Virus record (IMG/VR): IMGVR_UViG_2850808358_000008
Span: 1 to 37,329 of that record
Length of the DNA: 37,329 bases
DNA from: a virus
Lineage: Duplodnaviria > Heunggongvirae > Uroviricota > Caudoviricetes
Direction: 5' to 3' (one strand)
The first letter of the stretch is position 1; every line of letters begins with the position of its first letter. Of this stretch, positions 1-27,949 are shown piece by piece. Under the pieces are notes generated by a model that saw only the letters and a list, made by a program, of their open reading frames with translations, was not told where the DNA came from and searched no databases. Made by a program: the position numbers and the translations under genes.

Positions 1-1005
1 TTAATCCCCCGTGGACACTGCGTGGACACTTACGCCACCTTTCAGCGGATTAAGGGCCACCGCATCCTGCAGGTAATCCGGTGCAAAATGCGCATATGCC
101 ATTGTTTGCTGAATGGTTGCGTGGCCAAGAATCTTCTGAAGCGCAATAATGTTTCCTCCGTTCATCACAAAATGGCTGGCGAACGTATGCCGCAGCACAT
201 GTGCAGCCTGGCCTTTTGGTAAATCGGGCTTAACTCTTTTCAGCGCCAAGCAGAATTCCCGGTACTTCACCTCAAACAAGCCGCCTGTTTCTCTGGTTTT
301 GATCGCCTCACAAACTGCCTGCGAAATTGGCACTGTTCTCTTTCGGCCATTTTTGGTTTCAAGAAACGTTACACGGTTATGAACTATCTGTTCACCACGA
401 AGCTTACAAGCTTCACTCCAGCGCGCCCCTGTGCTTAAACACAAAAGCGCAACACGCCAGTAGTCGCCCTCCAATGTATCGAGCAATAGCGCTACTTCCT
501 TCCGGGACAGGAAAGCCATTTCTCGCGGGGATACATAAAGAATAGAAATCCCCCTTACCGGATGCTCTGCATCCCAGAGGCCTATTTTCTTCAGTACGGT
601 AAACATTCCGGATAACCGATTCATATATCTGTTAGCAGATGACGGTTTCAATCCATCAGCTATCTTTTGAGAACGCCACGCGATAATTTTCAGCTTATCA
701 AGATCCACAGCCTGCATATCAGCGCCAAGCTCATTGATTATGTTGCGCAGTTGTTTTCGGTCTTCTTCCGCCTTACGCCTGTGCTGGCCGTGATACATCC
801 ACCACAACTCAAGCAAATCATTTAGCGTTCGACGATCACGGTAGCCCTGTATATATTCCCGCTTTTCAGCGTTCGCCATGATGTAGCGTTCAGTGGCCAC
901 CGCTACCGATTTTTTGTCAAATACCTTACGCACGCGCTTTCCCTTGCGTCCGTTCGGCCTGATGTCCAGCAAATAACGACCATCTTCGAGCTTCTTAATC
1001 GACAT
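1..1005 (-). CDS. int: Tyrosine integrase, P2 Int-like
   Basis: 339-aa ORF with conserved tyrosine-recombinase C-terminal motifs (HVLRHTFASHF, MAYAHF) and an N-terminus resembling P2 Int by recollection. ATG at 1005 follows a GGAGGG RBS; the ORF track begins at a TTG at 1020. Confidence 0.9.
   Translation of the reverse strand: MSIKKLEDGRYLLDIRPNGRKGKRVRKVFDKKSVAVATERYIMANAEKREYIQGYRDRRTLNDLLELWWMYHGQHRRKAEEDRKQLRNIINELGADMQAVDLDKLKIIAWRSQKIADGLKPSSANRYMNRLSGMFTVLKKIGLWDAEHPVRGISILYVSPREMAFLSRKEVALLLDTLEGDYWRVALLCLSTGARWSEACKLRGEQIVHNRVTFLETKNGRKRTVPISQAVCEAIKTRETGGLFEVKYREFCLALKRVKPDLPKGQAAHVLRHTFASHFVMNGGNIIALQKILGHATIQQTMAYAHFAPDYLQDAVALNPLKGGVSVHAVSTGD
11..28. repeat. attL core (gtggacactgcgtggaca), lying inside the 3' end of int
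   Basis: The 18-mer recurs at 36149-36166 with one mismatch (gtggtcactgcgtggaca). The left copy encodes the integrase C-terminus, as is typical for att cores. Confidence 0.65.
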
Positions 1006-8002: not shown

Positions 8003-8962
8003 ATGAAAATTTGTATCGACGACGGCTCCACCAACATCAAGCTGGCATGGACTGAGAACGGCGAACGCCGCAACGCCATCAGCCCGAACAGCTTCAAGTC
8101 GGAATGGTCTGCGCCGTTCGGTGGCTCGCAGCCTGCGAACTACATGCTTGATGGCGTGCGCTATGGTTTTGATCCGGTCAGCGATCGCTTTGTCCAGACG
8201 ACCGACACGCAATACCAGTACAGCGATGTGAATGTAATCGCCATTCACCACGCGCTGGTCAAATCAGGCATCACACCACAGGAGGTGGATGTGGTTGTCA
8301 CCCTGCCACTGAGCGAATATTTCGACACAAACGCACAGCCGGACATGGCCAACATCAACCGCAAAAAAGCGAACGTTATGCGCCCGGTGGAGTACCAGAA
8401 CGGTGAGGCATTCACTATCCGTAACGTGCGGGTTATGCCTGAATCCATTCCGGCTGGCTTTAAAGCACTGGCTGACATGAGTCCGTTTGAATCCCTGCTG
8501 ATTGTGGATTTAGGCGGAACCACGCTGGATGTGGCAAAGGTTCAGGGACAACTGGCAGGTATCAGCCAGGTGTTTTGCGATCCACACGTAGGCGTTTCTC
8601 TGATAGCCGATGCCGTACTGTCGGTGATGGCCACTAACGGTATGCGTACCAGTCACCATATCGCCAATACCATTATCGAACATCGCCGCGATGAAGCCTG
8701 GCTGCGCCAGCACATCCACAATGACGCGCATTACGCCAGCCTGATGACGGTTATTCGTGAAAAGGAAGAAACACTGAAACAACGCGTGATCCGCGCGCTG
8801 GCGGGTTTTTCGGGTTACGGGCGGGTGATGGTTGTCGGTGGCGGGGCGGAGATTGTGGCACCCGCTATCCGCGAAGCCTGCGGAGTTAATGCGACTTTCA
8901 TCGCGGACGGGGTGCCACAGTTTGCTCTGGTTAATGGGCTGTACGCAATGGACAAGGAGTAA
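8003..8962 (+). CDS. parM: Actin-like ATPase of the ParM/StbA family
   Basis: 319-aa ORF. N-terminus MKICIDDGSTNIKLAW and motifs DVNV(I/V)A(I/V)HHAL, MPESIPAG, DLGGTTLD and GGGAE match plasmid R1 ParM as recalled. Confidence 0.8.
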   Translation: MKICIDDGSTNIKLAWTENGERRNAISPNSFKSEWSAPFGGSQPANYMLDGVRYGFDPVSDRFVQTTDTQYQYSDVNVIAIHHALVKSGITPQEVDVVVTLPLSEYFDTNAQPDMANINRKKANVMRPVEYQNGEAFTIRNVRVMPESIPAGFKALADMSPFESLLIVDLGGTTLDVAKVQGQLAGISQVFCDPHVGVSLIADAVLSVMATNGMRTSHHIANTIIEHRRDEAWLRQHIHNDAHYASLMTVIREKEETLKQRVIRALAGFSGYGRVMVVGGGAEIVAPAIREACGVNATFIADGVPQFALVNGLYAMDKE

Positions 8963-8966
8963 ACCA

Positions 8967-9278
8967 ATGACGACACCAACCAGACGGATAAGTTTCTATC
9001 TGAAGCCCGCCGCCGTCAAGAACGAAGGCGAAGCATGCGCTTGGCTGGACAGCCTTACACCAGAAGCCCGCAAAAGCGGCCAACGCGTGGCTTTTCTGGC
9101 CGGGCTGGCGCTTCTGAAAATGAATCCAGCAGAGGCTTACCGACTGGCTGCATGGGCTGACGATGAGGCGTTATCGGTGACACAAACCAGGACAGAACGC
9201 CCCGTGCCACAGCCAGTACCAACCGCACAGATAACCAGTCAGATAGCAGGGAATATCCGGGCATTATTTCCTGAATGA
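8967..9278 (+). CDS. parR: ParR/StbB-like ribbon-helix-helix adaptor
   Basis: 104-aa ORF directly after parM. N-terminal RRISFYLKP and central AFLAGLAL resemble R1 ParR (RRTIAFKLNP, ALTAGLAL) as recalled. Confidence 0.55.
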   Translation: MTTPTRRISFYLKPAAVKNEGEACAWLDSLTPEARKSGQRVAFLAGLALLKMNPAEAYRLAAWADDEALSVTQTRTERPVPQPVPTAQITSQIAGNIRALFPE

Positions 9279-9338
9279 CGAATTTGACGGCTTTTAATTT
9301 TATCGGGGTGCACTGTCGCCCCGCACGAGGAAAACACG

Positions 9339-9507
9339 ATGAAAAAATACGAATACATGCTAATGAAAGAAGCACTGCGGGCTGGTCTGGCTCCCTGTCC
9401 TGTATCCGTAGAAGCTGTTGTTGGGAACACGATTTTCCGAACGCTGCGAAATCGCGTATCCGTGAAGATGGTTCACCAACCACCCAAATCTACCAGCATG
9501 ATCTATC
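9339..9507 (+). pseudogene. 5' fragment of a 175-aa hypothetical gene interrupted by the IS600-like element
   Basis: The frame beginning at ATG 9339 runs into the IS left end at 9508, and rejoins in frame after the IS at 10771 once the 3-bp duplication is removed. Confidence 0.6.
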
Positions 9508-9571
9508 TGAGGTAGCCTGAGTTTAACGGACACTCCTTCCTGAAATAGAATGGCATCAGAAGGAGCTAATA

Positions 9572-9874
9572 ATGAGCAGAAAAACCCAACGTTACTCTAA
9601 AGAGTTCAAAGCCGAAGCTGTCAGAACGGTTCTTGAAAATCAACTTTCGATCAGTGAAGGCGCTTCCCGATTATCCCTTCCTGAAGGCACTTTAGGACAA
9701 TGGGTTACCGCCGCCAGAAAAGGGCTCGGTACTCCTGGTTCCCGCACGGTGGCTGAACTGGAATCTGAAATTCTGCAACTGCGTAAGGCGTTAAATGAAG
9801 CTCGCCTTGAGCGAGATATATTAAAAAAAGCAACAGCGTATTTTGCACAGGAGTCGCTGAAAAATACGCGTTAA
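9572..9874 (+). CDS. IS3-family transposase OrfA (HTH / leucine zipper)
   Basis: 100-aa ORF beginning MSRKTQRYSKEFKAEAV. A7 slippery run near 9817-9826 for the usual -1 frameshift into orfB. Confidence 0.85.
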   Translation: MSRKTQRYSKEFKAEAVRTVLENQLSISEGASRLSLPEGTLGQWVTAARKGLGTPGSRTVAELESEILQLRKALNEARLERDILKKATAYFAQESLKNTR

Positions 9875-9909
9875 TCGAACAATGGCGACAACAATTTCCC
9901 ATTGAAGCG

Positions 9910-10727
9910 ATGTGTCAGGTATTTGGTGTATCCAGGAGCGGTTATTACAACTGGGTACAGCATGAACCCTCAGACAGAAAACAAAGTGATGAGCGGCTAA
10001 AACTGGAGATTAAGGTGGCACATATCCGCACTCGCGAAACATATGGAACCCGGCGGCTCCAGACGGAGCTGGCAGAGAATGGCATCATCGTTGGTCGTGA
10101 CCGACTGGCACGTCTTCGTAAGGAGCTAAGGCTACGCTGTAAGCAGAAACGCAAGTTCAGAGCGACTACGAACCCGAACCACAATCTGCCAGTTGCGCCA
10201 AATCTGCTGAACCAGACGTTCGCTCCTACAGCACCAAATCAGGTCTGGGTGGCGGACCTGACGTATGTTGCCACACAGGAGGGATGGTTGTACCTCGCTG
10301 GCATCAAAGATGTTTATACGTGCGAAATTGTCGGCTACGCCATGGGAGAGCGCATGACAAAAGAGCTGACAGGTAAAGCCCTGTTTATGGCGCTCAGGAG
10401 CCAGCGCCCACCTGCCGGGCTAATCCACCACTCCGATCGAGGTTCACAGTACTGCGCATACGATTACCGGGTCATACAGGAGCAGTCTGGTCTGAAAACA
10501 TCAATGTCGCGTAAAGGTAACTGTTACGACAACGCTCCGATGGAAAGCTTCTGGGGAACGCTGAAAAATGAGAGCCTGAGCCACTATCGTTTTAAGAGCC
10601 GGAATGAGGCCATCTCAGTAATACGGGAATACATTGAGATTTTCTACAATCGTCAGCGTCGTCACTCTCGTCTGGGAATATCTCCCCGGCAGCCTTCAGG
10701 GAAAAATATCATCAGATGGCTGCTTAA
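9910..10727 (+). CDS. IS3-family transposase OrfB (DDE), with an apparent 1-bp deletion in a GGG run at 10674-10676
   Basis: DDE-type transposase ORF. The plausible C-terminus (GNISPAAFREKYHQMAA, stop 10725-10727) is in the neighbouring frame; the frame as sequenced instead runs past the IS end to 10812. Confidence 0.75.
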
Positions 10728-10770
10728 AAAAAGAACAAATGGTAGTGTCCGCTATTGCCAGTACACCTCA

Positions 10771-11129
10771 ATCTGCCGCTGCCCGAGGCTATCAAACTTA
10801 TGCGTTCGCTGAAATTTGCGATTTGGATGCAGACACAAATCAACAAAGCGGTGCAAAACACCTTCGTTAAGAGACTAATACCGGAGCTTGCTGCCAGATG
10901 TGCAAAATGTACCAGACCCGCACTTCAATTTGATCTGTCATTGATTCAACAAGCTACGGAGGCAGAACTGTACCGCCTGTCACCTATCCGTGATGCTCAC
11001 ACGGAAGCATCAGAAATGTTCCGGCTCATGTTTCAATTTAATTTTGCCGTTCGACGCACACGCGTTCAGGTCAATCGCATGATGCAGGAGCAGGAAGAGT
11101 TAACACAGTACAAAGGGGGCAGCCAGTGA
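10771..11129 (+). pseudogene. 3' fragment of the IS-interrupted 175-aa hypothetical gene
   Basis: In-frame continuation of 9339-9507 after removing the IS and one copy of the ATC duplication. Confidence 0.6.
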
Positions 11130-11365
11130 GTAATTCAGCACGACTACAGCTTGGTTTTTCACCGCTATCAAAAACCATCGTATTGGCAAAAATGCGTGAC
11201 TTAGGAGACGGAACAAAACGCCGCGTAGGAAATGATCGCGGTCGCGATGTAACCAACGAGGCCGCTCAACTCGTTTGGCATCTAGTCATGGCAGAAGGCG
11301 GTGAAATTAATTGGGAGCTGGATGATGGTTCTCGTATGATTTTGAGGGCCGAGAAGAGTAAATAG
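11126..11365 (+). CDS. Hypothetical protein (79 aa)
   Basis: GTG start overlaps the upstream stop (GTGA), suggesting translational coupling. No recognisable family. Confidence 0.35.
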   Translation: MSNSARLQLGFSPLSKTIVLAKMRDLGDGTKRRVGNDRGRDVTNEAAQLVWHLVMAEGGEINWELDDGSRMILRAEKSK

Positions 11366-11379
11366 CTCAAGGGGGATTA

Positions 11380-11565
11380 ATGCTAAATGATGATGAAGAA
11401 GAGCTGCTTATGCAGGAATGGTCGCTCGGTGATTATGATAATGGTGAAAATGGGTGCCCGCATTGTGGCCGTTATCGTTTATGTATCTGCCAGAATGGAA
11501 AACACAGATGTGAAAAGTGCAATTGGTCTCCGGAACTTAATGACTACGTGCCGATCGAGTGGTAG
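11380..11565 (+). CDS. Small cysteine-rich, zinc-ribbon-like protein (61 aa)
   Basis: AAGGGGG RBS. Seven cysteines arranged CPHCG...CIC...C..C, with an acidic N-terminus. Confidence 0.45.
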   Translation: MLNDDEEELLMQEWSLGDYDNGENGCPHCGRYRLCICQNGKHRCEKCNWSPELNDYVPIEW

Positions 11566-11605
11566 AGGTAAGTCACACTAGGTGTTTTTTAGTTGATTTT
11601 ATAAA

Positions 11606-23370: not shown

Positions 23371-25480
23371 ATGAGTACCACAACACGTAAATTTAAAACC
23401 GTTATCACCGATACGGGTGCCAAAAAATTAGCTCAGGCAGCCGCGCCAGATGGTAAGCCTGTCCGCCTGACTCATATGGCCGTGGGCGACGGTGGCGGCA
23501 CGCTGCCCACACCAGACAGTAAGCAGACCCGTCTGGTGCATGAGGTGTGGCGACACACTGTTAATCGCGTCATCCTGGACGCAACACATCAGAACCGCAT
23601 TATTGCGGAGCTGGTTATTCCTCCTGAAACGGGCGGATTCTGGATCCGGGAAATTGGTGTATTTGATGAGCACGGCGATTTAATCGCGGTGGGCAATACT
23701 GCCGAAAGTTACAAACCAGCCGTTGCCGAGGGGTCCGGACGTGCACAAACATTTCGCACCATTCTGACCGTATCCAGCACTGCCACCGTGGCGCTTACCG
23801 TGGATAACACCATGGTGATGGCCACAGTGGATTACGTGGATGACAAACTGAAAGAGCCTGAACAGTCACGACGTCACCCGGATGCCTCGCTGACCGCAAA
23901 AGGCTTTGTTCAACTCAGTAGCGCCACCAACAGCACGTCTGAAGCACTGGCCGCAACGCCGAAAGCGGTCAAGGCAGCCTATGACCTTGCTAACGGGAAA
24001 TATACCGCACAGGACGCCACTACAGCGCGGAAAGGACTTGTCCAGCTCAGTAGCGCCACCAACAGCGATTCAGAAACGCTGGCGGCAACACCAATGGCGG
24101 TAAAGGCAGCATATGACCTTGCTAACGGGAAATATACTGCGCAGGATGCCACCACAGCGCGGAAAGGCCTTGTCCAGCTCAGTAGCGCCACCAACAGCAC
24201 GTCTGAAACGCTGGCGGCAACACCAAAGTCGGTAAAGGCAGCCTATGACCTTGCTAACGGGAAATATACCGCTCAGGACGCTACGACAGCACAAAAAGGA
24301 ATTGTCCAGCTCAGTAGTGCAACCAACAGCGCATCTGAAACGCTTGCTGCGACACCGAAAGCTGTGAAAGCAGCTAATGACAATGCGAATGGTCGGGTAC
24401 CTTCTGCCCGTAAGGTGAATGGTAAGGCGCTTTCAGCGGATATAACACTGACACCGAAAGATATTGGTACGCTTAACTCAACAACAATGTCATTCAGAGG
24501 TGGTGCTGGTTGGTTCAAATTAGCAACGGTAACCATGCCACAGGCGAGTTCTGTTGTTTCAATTACGTTGATTGGTGGCGCTGGATATAACGTCGGTTCA
24601 CCTCAACAGGCAGGTATATCTGAAATTGTTTTGCGTGCAGGTAATGGTAATCCGAAGGGGATTACTGGTGCTTTATGGCAGCGCACATCGGCAGGGTTTA
24701 CAAATTTTGCCTGGGTCAATACATCTGGTGATACTTACGATATTTACGTTGCAATCGGAAATTATGCGACTGGTGTAAATATTCAATGGGATTATACCAG
24801 TAATGCCAGCGTAACGATTCATCCGTCACCAGCATATTCTGCTAATAAGCCGGAAGGGTTAACGGACGGTACAGTTTATTCACTCTATACGCCATCAGAG
24901 CAGTTTTATCCGCCTGGCGCACCAATCCCGTGGCCATCGGATACCGTTCCGTCTGGTTATGCCCTGATGCAGGGGCAGACTTTTGACAAATCTGCCTACC
25001 CGAAACTTGCAGTCGCTTATCCGTCAGGCGTGATCCCTGATATGCGTGGCTGGACGATTAAGGGCAAACCTGCCAGTGGTCGGGCCGTATTGTCTCAGGA
25101 ACAGGACGGCATTAAATCGCACACCCACAGCGCCAGCGCATCCAGTACGGATTTGGGGACGAAAACCACATCGTCGTTTGATTACGGAACTAAATCCACA
25201 AATAACACCGGAGCACATACACACAACTTTGCTTACAACAATACTTCAGCATACGCAGAAACTCCCGGTACCGGTGGTGGAATGCATGCAACTAACACAA
25301 GCAAGACAGCAAGTAATCGCGTATTAAGCGCAGGAGCTCATACTCACACAGTAGCAATAGGTGCGCATACACATACGCTCGCTATTGGTTCGCACACACA
25401 CCATTACCATTGCCGCTTATGGCAACGCGGAAAACACCGTAAAAAACATCGCATTTAACTATATTGTGAGGCTTGCATAA
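23371..25480 (+). CDS. H: Tail fibre protein, P2 gpH-like, with an apparent frame disruption in a (CA)n run near 25393-25402
   Basis: Large ORF after I with an N-terminus like P2 H, internal tandem repeats and a His/Thr-rich AHTHT stretch. The expected C-terminus ([26 protein letters not shown], stop 25478-25480 overlapping the G start) is in the +1 frame relative to the ORF as sequenced, which ends at 25458. Confidence 0.8.
23899..24380 (+). repeat. About 3.6 tandem copies of a 132-bp (44-aa) repeat inside H
   Basis: Units start at 23899, 24031, 24163 and 24295 and encode KG(F/L/I)VQLSSATNS(T/D/A)SE(A/T)LAATPK(A/S)[21 protein letters not shown] with a few substitutions. Confidence 0.85.
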
Positions 25481-26079
25481 TGGCATTCAGAATGAGTGAA
25501 CAACCACGAACCATAAAAATTTATAATCTGCTGGTCGGAACCAATGAATTTATTGGTGAAGGTGATGCATACATTCCACCTCATACAGGTCTGCCTGCAA
25601 ATAGTACTGATATTGCTCCGCCAGATATTCCAGCTGGCTTCGTGGCTGTTTTCAACAGTGATGGGGCGTCCTGGCATCTCGTTGAAGATCATCGTGGTAA
25701 AACGGTTTATGACGTGGCTTCCGGCGACGCGTTATTTATTTCTGAACTCGGTCCGTTACCGGAAAATGTTACCTGGTTGTCGCCGGGAGGGGAATATCAG
25801 AAGTGGAACGGCACAGCCTGGGTGAAGGATACGGAAGCAGAAAAACTGTTCCGGATCCGGGAGGCAGAAGAAACAAAAAACAGCCTGATGCAGGTAGCCA
25901 GTGAGCATATTGCGCCACTTCAGGATGCTGTAGATCTGGAAATCGCAACGGAGGAAGAAATCTCGTTGCTGGAAGCCTGGAAGAAGTATCGAGTGCTGCT
26001 GAACCGTGTTGATACATCAAGAGCACCGGATATTGAGTGGCCAGCTTCCCCAGTGGAATCAAGGAGTAAACAAGCATAA
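25480..26079 (+). CDS. G: Tail fibre assembly chaperone, P2 gpG-like
   Basis: 199-aa ORF whose start overlaps the expected H stop (TAATG). Confidence 0.8.
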
Positions 26080-26173: not shown

Positions 26174-27352
26174 ATGAATGTTATTTCATCATTAAAACAG
26201 CTTAACAGACAGCGAAATATTAAAACAAAAAAGATAAAGACGAAGGCCAGACTGGCATTTCTAAAAATGCGATACAGAAGGAAAACATCATTACAGCCGG
26301 ATAGTTATAAAACAGTGTGCATTTTCATGCACATGCAAGCCATTGGTGACGGCATCGTTACCTCAGGGTTTATTAAACAACTTCAAAAATCCGGTATGGT
26401 GGTATATGTGATAGCACCTTCAAGAGTATCATTCCTCTTTACTGATATTGTTGGCGTGGATGCCTTTATATCTTACGAGAAAAATAAATTTAACGAACTA
26501 AAAGCAAAGATAAAAAAACTGAATGTAGATCTTGTTGTTGACTTCTCAAATTTTGATAACACAGCGATAACCAGATTGCAAACCCTACATTTACTTAGAC
26601 CTAAACACTCTATCTGTTTTAATCATCCTGCCGTAACTATTTTTGATACAAATATAATCGATAATCGTTCCATTCACACATCTGAAAGAATGAAAAAAGT
26701 TTTATCTTTACTAAAGATAAAAAATAATAATTATGCTGCAGCGCTTAATTTTGACAACAAAATATATGAACCAGCAAATATTGTTGCAAATGAATTCAGG
26801 AAGAAAAACAAAAAATTAGTTATATTTAACCCTTATGGCTCTCAGAATAGCAGAACCTTATCTGATGAACAGATAAACAAAGTACTAGCTTACCTTAATA
26901 ACCTTAAGGGATATCACACAATAGTTTTTAATATGGGAAAACAGATTAATCACAATGGATTGGATAATGTGTCTCTATCTCCATTTTCTGATGCCGGATG
27001 TTCATTTGCATTGGTTCGCCATGCTGATTTTGTTATAACTGTAGATACTGCCATTGTACATTTAGCCAGTGCATTAAACATTAGACAATACTGTATATAT
27101 AATAACAGAATGCATGAAGGAAAATTCGAAAATAATATTGTGTGGGGGCCAAACAGCAAATTAGCGACTCAACTCACCACATCCGAACATCTAAGGTCTG
27201 AAGGGGGCGACGATATGCATAAATTCGACATAATGATCTTAATTAATGCTATCAAACAAGATTTGACAAACGATATACCGAATTACCACTCGGATTTAGG
27301 TTGTAAAAATAGATCCAGAAACCCAGAATTAGAAAGTAGCAATTCTTTATAA
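26174..27352 (+). CDS. Glycosyltransferase family 9 (LPS heptosyltransferase-like) moron
   Basis: Motifs HMQAIGDGIVTSGFI, VIFNPYGSQNSRTLSDEQ and ADFVITVDTAIVHLASALN parallel WaaC/WaaF-type GT9 signatures as recalled. Visibly AT-rich compared with flanking phage genes. Start uncertain; the ORF opens at 26114. Confidence 0.7.
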   Translation: MNVISSLKQLNRQRNIKTKKIKTKARLAFLKMRYRRKTSLQPDSYKTVCIFMHMQAIGDGIVTSGFIKQLQKSGMVVYVIAPSRVSFLFTDIVGVDAFISYEKNKFNELKAKIKKLNVDLVVDFSNFDNTAITRLQTLHLLRPKHSICFNHPAVTIFDTNIIDNRSIHTSERMKKVLSLLKIKNNNYAAALNFDNKIYEPANIVANEFRKKNKKLVIFNPYGSQNSRTLSDEQINKVLAYLNNLKGYHTIVFNMGKQINHNGLDNVSLSPFSDAGCSFALVRHADFVITVDTAIVHLASALNIRQYCIYNNRMHEGKFENNIVWGPNSKLATQLTTSEHLRSEGGDDMHKFDIMILINAIKQDLTNDIPNYHSDLGCKNRSRNPELESSNSL

Positions 27353-27448: not shown

Positions 27449-27943
27449 TCAGAACAGTCCTTTAACTGAACTGGCCGCGCTGTTAAGGGATGATGTGACC
27501 TTATCTTTGAAGCCGGACAGCATATCACTGAACGATGAGGATTGCAGACGCTCCCGCAAATCCTCATCACAGCGTTCAAGGGTCAGTGAAAATTCTATCT
27601 TTTTCGCCTTACCGTAGCGATCAAACTCGGAACGGGTCGTATTCGTTTCAGTCAGTACATACATGCCGTAAATCTGCCCGACACCATCAATCAGAGGCCA
27701 GGGGCGTCCTGTATATGCCTGTGTGGTCAGCAACGAAAGCGACACTTCGCCACCTGTAATTTCAGGATAAAGCACGCCGGAAAGCACGATGCGATCATCA
27801 CCTGCGCCGATATACTGCCAGCTTGCTGAACGGTTAACGCGTTCATTTTTCACATGCCGCCAGCTTTTGTTTTGCTGTAACTGCTGATGCGGCAATGTGC
27901 GCAGCTCAAAAACAAACATGCCGTAGATCATCATCATGGCCAT
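27449..27943 (-). CDS. U: Tail protein, P2 gpU-like
   Basis: 164-aa ORF. N-terminus MMMIYGMFVFELRTLPHQQLQ...WRH resembles P2 U as recalled. Confidence 0.8.
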   Translation of the reverse strand: MAMMMIYGMFVFELRTLPHQQLQQNKSWRHVKNERVNRSASWQYIGAGDDRIVLSGVLYPEITGGEVSLSLLTTQAYTGRPWPLIDGVGQIYGMYVLTETNTTRSEFDRYGKAKKIEFSLTLERCDEDLRERLQSSSFSDMLSGFKDKVTSSLNSAASSVKGLF

Positions 27944-27949
27944 GACTCC

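Follow-up and report, generated by a model that had tools for sequence, protein, structure and literature searches.

Gene H, the tail fibre gene of a P2-like prophage, is very probably the carrier of a real and heritable mutation, the loss of two bases from a short CA run near its 3′ end, and not of a sequencing error. We hold the account as a whole with equally high, though not complete, confidence: a real, recurrent slipped-strand deletion of one CA unit knocks out the fibre, and the frame breaks found elsewhere in the record are separate errors of assembly.

In the mechanism that we propose, slipped-strand mispairing would have shortened (CA)5 to (CA)4. This heritable 2-bp deletion would put H in a reading frame whose stop lies 22 nt ahead of gene G, and the folding of the fibre tip would be lost. 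The tract would be a mutational hotspot, at which the same deletion is repeated on nearly identical prophage backgrounds. The resulting allele would persist because the fibre gene of a non-induced prophage is under little selection, and the window (the whole stretch of 37,329 nucleotides that was analysed) would be the carrier of one such allele. Hereafter OFF denotes (CA)4 with a frameshifted 695-aa H, and ON denotes (CA)5 with an in-frame 703-aa H.

Gene H and its truncated terminus

The prophage lies between an integrase gene (4..1005, minus strand) and the host gene flk (36334..37326). As sequenced, H (23371..25458, plus strand) encodes 695 residues, of which the last 18 codons are frameshifted. 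Directly downstream, and intact, is G (25480..26079, plus strand), the tail fibre assembly chaperone, which matches PF02413 (Caudo_TAP) with an E-value of 9e-44. The genes U, tape-measure, E/E′, tube and sheath occupy the minus strand (27449..33022), with V-W-J-I-H-G on the opposite strand and D (33048..34286) followed by ogr on the plus strand; this arrangement of the tail genes is common to all relatives fetched. Between G and U there is an AT-rich cargo gene (26174..27349; GC 0.30–0.38 versus about 0.5 in the flanks). Its product is a family-9 glycosyltransferase (GT9), heptosyltransferase-like and 100% identical to WP_001100987.1 of the M9 prophage; it may be an LPS-modifying moron through which the phage changes its own receptor. 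The integrated prophage also contains ParM/ParR-type plasmid partition genes (8003..9275), which are conserved in relatives. Downstream of parR, at about 9280–11605, lies an IS3-family insertion (HTH_Tnp_1 orfA and rve orfB; ORFs 9572..9874 and 9910..10812) with no counterpart in five aligned related prophages.

How does H end? Across the junction the sequence is att ggt tcg cac aca cac cat tac cat tgc, and a taa follows in the same frame. The tract itself, (CA)4CC at 25393..25402 (plus strand), is the site of the 2-nt deletion; its ancestral state is (CA)5CC, coding H-T-H-T. Beyond it the out-of-frame tail of H (25402..25458, plus strand) comprises 18 residues and a stop, the TAA at 25456–25458. 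Stranded in the +1 frame (25400..25480, plus strand) are the 26 residues and TAA of the conserved fibre C-terminus, and this TAA, at 25478–25480, overlaps the ATG of G as TAATG. The stop that H uses as sequenced is 22 nt upstream of that ATG, and the stop–start overlap of H and G is lost. The GAGG 8 nt before the ATG of G is retained. If one CA is restored to the tract, the computed product is an H of 703 aa with the canonical end, and the intact homologues of H are themselves 703 aa, encoded in a single ORF.

An earlier note on this DNA had placed the shift within 25393–25402 and described the neighbouring frame as encoding a typical fibre terminus. Its coordinates, peptides and junction all proved correct when the DNA and the ORF list were read. 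Alignment with four close relatives puts a 2-nt gap of the window in that interval: one missing CA, tcg(CA)4cc in the window versus tcg(CA)5cc, is the only difference in 200 nt. The match of the +1 peptide to the conserved C-terminus of all fetched homologues and of T4 gp37 is no coincidence. The comparison with related fibre genes that the note had suggested was run, and the homologues end in a frame other than the one read in the window.

Why should a dinucleotide run be found here at all? The needle of the fibre contains three returning HxH motifs (AHTHTV, AHTHTL and SHTH; 25339..25401, plus strand), identified by reading the codons and aligning them with the gp37 needle. The two earlier HTHT motifs, written with CAT and ACT/ACG codons, contain no long run. 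The last, S-H-T-H-T, is tcg cac aca cac acc, and H contains a CA microsatellite because this motif was encoded as CAC ACA CAC ACC. With (CA)5 restored, the 37-kb window would have just two five-unit dinucleotide runs, of which this is one. The homologue P0001 has one extra AIGAHTHTL unit (equivalent to about 25363–25389 of the window); gain or loss of whole HxH repeat units is thus a second kind of variation in the needle, one that keeps the frame.

The domains of H point to a well-known family. By profile search the N-terminus is of the P2 gpH type (PF12571, E 5e-54) and PF03406 is matched four times (E 5e-78). These four repeats are encoded by a 132-nt tandem repeat at 23899–24381 (3.7 copies, 84% identity); in the related prophage L039, five substitutions are clustered at 24312–24324, consistent with conversion between the repeat copies. 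The collar domain PF07484 follows (residues 516–563; 24916..25059, plus strand), as judged by a profile match and by alignment to 2XGF, and after it comes the HxH needle, the order found in the gp37 tip. The C-terminal 190 aa of the repaired H align over their full length with the T4 gp37 tip as crystallised (PDB 2XGF; E 1.3e-73). The alignment spans query residues 1–190 and includes the terminal 19-residue stretch besides the collar and the HxH motifs. The conserved C-terminus is in frame in all homologues compared and in the window is found only in the +1 frame; a terminal 15-residue ending is kept in every homologue retrieved. The H of the window is therefore a frameshifted (pseudogene) member of the P2 gpH/T4 gp37-type tail fibres. 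The collar, the HxH motifs and the conserved terminus are shared by the repaired H with the T4 gp37/P2 gpH/lambda Stf family, and here too a Caudo_TAP chaperone gene follows the fibre gene. On the other hand, its N-terminal part is P2 gpH-like (PF12571, PF03406), not T4-like, and H as sequenced differs from the family in lacking the last 26 residues in frame.

What does this loss mean for the protein? In gp37 the collar D10 is made of residues 811–881 and 1010–1026, and the needle D11 (882–1009) is inserted in D10 (PMC6957217). The 26 residues lost from H align to gp37 1001–1026, that is, to the last needle strand and the collar-closing strand, and in the window they are replaced by 18 unrelated ones. 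Since both of these strands are gone, we infer that the 695-aa product would be unable to complete the trimeric tip. Such a trimeric, chaperone-dependent tip most probably cannot fold, the fibre of a (CA)4 prophage is probably non-functional, and the prophage of the window, by homology, is probably unable to make adsorbing virions.

The CA tract in relatives and its probably recurrent deletion

In all 40 complete E. coli genomes that have the fibre tip, the DNA is 2 nt longer across the site than a 100-nt query from the window, and the best E. coli matches cover 903 nt for a 901-nt query. Among public contigs found by a variable-gap pattern scan, the tract is 10 nt long in 17 of 18, either as CACACACACA or as the synonymous CATACACACA, whose CAT codon breaks the run in six of the 18. 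The one contig with (CA)4 is L039. The longer-tract alleles in genomes and contigs are (CA)5 or CATA(CA)3. Thus a full-length tract is present in 57 of the 58 sequences (40 genomes and 18 contigs) belonging to samples that were not chosen for the OFF allele, and neither (CA)3 nor (CA)6 occurs among these 58 DNA sequences. Allele-specific scans of viral contigs gave (CA)4 once, (CA)5 five times and (CA)6 never; the variable-gap scan of one-genome-per-species contigs returned no matches. Five exact look-ups in a collection of 15 billion proteins found no (CA)6 or (CA)3 version of H.

Where, then, does (CA)4 occur? The 90% cluster to which the H of the window belongs has five members, all with the identical frameshifted 21-residue ending: the window protein, CTZ25587.1 (encoded in L039), CTY23455.1, EOX7139640.1/EPA8250498.1/GAB5129841.1 and WP_319052514.1 (MDX4989388.1). 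They come from different submitters; the four distinct proteins besides that of the window represent about 25 independent assemblies, mostly draft, and one of them, P0123 (EOX7139640.1/EPA8250498.1/GAB5129841.1), is on 6 contigs and in about 21 samples. The closest relatives of the H–G–GT9 module of the window, L049–L054 (99.6% identical), are all (CA)4 and have none of its C-run deletions. L049–L052 encode an intact tape-measure protein (935 aa), an intact sheath (394 aa) and an intact D (369 aa), and over 14.7 kb the only indels that separate these four from the window are five private C-run deletions of the latter. L039, too, has (CA)4, yet shows no excess of private indels. Because (CA)4 is common to many independently sequenced isolates, the CA deletion should be taken as a real allele. 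A homologue search with the last 136 aa, frameshifted tail included, returned short fragments only, none of which covers the tail, since the OFF proteins are hidden inside the 90% clusters; coverage of the frameshifted query ends at about 87–90%, and no homologue representative matches the tail.

Did the deletion arise once or many times? To address this question we restored each OFF protein to frame and searched for exact copies of the result. Such in-frame siblings exist for three of the four: P0127 (5 contigs), P0138 (2 contigs) and P0139 (8 contigs). The corresponding genomes are nearly identical. Over 22 kb, 7 SNPs and the CA indel separate L049 (OFF) from L055 (ON); over 17–18 kb, 2 SNPs separate L051 and L052 (OFF) from L057 (ON). 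For L039 (OFF) the count is 0 SNPs over 4.6 kb relative to L059 (ON), and 2 over 12.7 kb relative to L060 (ON). In the first group, L049 goes with L055 at sites 6738 and 11276, and L050–L052 go with L057 at sites 7018 and 13413. The CA state cuts across both of these splits, in violation of the four-gamete test. On both sides of its tract L039 has the haplotype of the (CA)5 genomes L001, L046 and L042, and its private SNPs lie 87 nt upstream and 169 nt downstream of the tract. A single origin spread by descent was ruled out by the CA state set against these SNP bipartitions.

The conflict between the CA state and the SNP tree therefore calls for at least three independent slippage events. On the most parsimonious reading of the sequences, (CA)5 would have been shortened to (CA)4 on three or more separate occasions, twice in the first group and once in the lineage of L039; the allele of the window would be either a fourth event or common with the first group. 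A short gene-conversion patch, in place of recurrence, could in principle have moved one deletion between haplotypes. It would need to be shorter than about 2.1 kb in the first group (group A) and shorter than 256 bp for L039. Mutation, one of three origins that the earlier note had offered, is thus supported in the form of recurrent dinucleotide slippage, with ON and OFF siblings on three haplotypes.

How mutable is the tract? Very roughly, it is about 1,600 times more mutable than the average site (2 CA events versus 15 SNPs in 12.1 kb), a figure inflated by ascertainment. Five intact haplotypes (P0126, three others and the M9 protein) were looked up in their OFF versions, and exact look-ups in the 15-billion-protein collection found none. 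P0126, with 191 contigs, is the most abundant intact haplotype, and since even this one is without an OFF counterpart, the hotspot is a modest one.

If both states are found on nearly identical genomes, might the tract be a contingency locus, a reversible ON/OFF switch of the fibre that P2-like prophages keep as useful? The tract sits in a receptor-binding protein, its state shows homoplasy against the SNP tree, three nearly identical haplotypes are each represented by both states, and the mutability, crude and inflated as it is, points the same way. In common with the known contingency loci based on simple sequence repeats (SSRs), H has a coding microsatellite in which a change of length switches the reading frame, and a length polymorphism among near-identical genomes that has arisen repeatedly. 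Such loci switch reversibly between several lengths; the H tract, however, has only five units and one alternative length, four. The tree is explained by deletions alone, with no reversion required. The full-length tract in 57 of 58 unselected sequences also speaks against a switch, and the perfect repeat is not conserved, the CAT codon of CATACACACA interrupting it in a third of the 18 public contigs.

A further observation concerns L059 (14060–14757; GCA_001283905.2), where IS1 truncates the prophage just past the GT9 gene and H is in frame, with (CA)5. The truncated prophage adjoins the host suc genes, and the ON state is evidently not tied to prophage integrity. An ON state that does not track phage viability fits better with neutral drift than with regulation. 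We consider a contingency locus improbable, at something like one chance in ten, and we are just as doubtful that the codons of the last HxH motif, CAC ACA CAC ACC, serve as a low-frequency reversible switch of the fibre. If they did, a population of lysogens would always contain a minority of fibre-competent and fibre-less prophages. Of the slipped-strand variation of the fibre tip proposed in the earlier note, then, the slippage is supported and the reversible, adaptive switch is not: only four and five units are seen, and deletions suffice. We conclude that the CA tract is an ordinary mutational hotspot and probably not a regulated switch.

Frame breaks elsewhere in the record

Could the true tract of this prophage nevertheless be (CA)5, the record having dropped one CA? 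The record is certainly rich in errors. Within 31 kb the window has 16 private indels whose length is not a multiple of three, 12 of them deletions; this rate, 0.51 per kb, compares with 0–0.4 per kb in 19 comparison loci. Mapped against five relatives, the private 1-nt deletions lie at 1321, 6172, 7660, 11760, 11859, 28981, 32682, 33090, 33133, 33219 and 34969, mostly in G/C runs. They break the repressor gene C, repA (twice), the tape-measure gene and the sheath gene, as found by tblastn of the proteins of the M9 prophage (L005) against the window, and leave D with a scrambled N-terminus. The 10 kb of host DNA adjoining the prophage in CP026877.1 (GCA_002950035.1) is affected likewise, with three private 1-nt deletions relative to nine of nine E. 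coli: by one of them pdxB is frameshifted (G4 to G3) and by another the 3′ end of accD is altered (C5 to C4), the two sites being L019 11387 and 15994. We conclude that the frame breaks in C, repA, tape-measure, sheath and D are assembly errors private to this record and not prophage decay.

The CA change was at first taken to be one more of these errors, and this hypothesis was dropped on account of the (CA)4 shared with other assemblies. The change is a loss of 2 nt in a dinucleotide run, whereas every other private indel of the window is of 1 nt; it is neither private nor of the usual type. The same protein end recurs in some 25 samples, from several submitters and assemblers and in prophages that are otherwise intact, and the closest relatives of the module, L049–L054, carry (CA)4 free of the C-run deletions that mark the window. 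Sequencing error, the first of the origins offered in the earlier note, is for these reasons very unlikely.

Least credible of all, to the point of being negligible, is programmed recoding, in which a +1 shift of ribosomes at the CA run would yield full-length H from a (CA)4 template: such a shift would restore the conserved end, but H is a single ORF (703 aa) in 40 of 40 complete genomes and in all fetched proteins, the two-frame layout, far from being conserved in homologues, is confined to recent derivatives of in-frame alleles, and cac-cat-tac presents no slippery +1 motif (hungry or stop codon).

Precedents and meaning

Real, recurrent deletion by slippage being the reading that we prefer, what is its nearest parallel? 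The closest precedent is the stf frameshift of lambda PaPa relative to Ur-lambda. According to PMC12617516, the stf frameshift of laboratory lambda abolishes the gp37-related side fibres; the annotation of HK630 reads ‘missing C relative to Ur-lambda’. In both cases a gp37-related fibre gene has suffered a small frameshift, by which a functional fibre is lost (here probably), and in both the downstream chaperone gene, tfa in lambda and G here, is intact. The lambda mutation, however, is of a single base, affects an accessory side fibre and became fixed in a laboratory stock, whereas the slip of 2 nt in the window hits the only tail fibre of a P2-like myovirus, and does so in the wild and repeatedly.

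Some consequences are practical. In the prophage of the window, H should be annotated as a frameshifted pseudogene. The 695-aa product is entered in RefSeq and GenBank (WP_319052514.1 is an example) under the plain name ‘tail fiber protein’, and predictions of host range or designs of engineered fibres that use it would inherit a scrambled tip. Moreover, an assembly rich in errors may still contain genuine frameshifts; look-ups in the population can tell these from errors without reads.

For the biology of these prophages, the tract presents a small natural hotspot: the codons chosen for a metal-binding HxH motif form a repeat that is prone to slip, and the repeat leads to the repeated knock-out of a receptor-binding protein during residence as a prophage. 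The finding is a modest addition to what is known of prophage decay and not a new mechanism.
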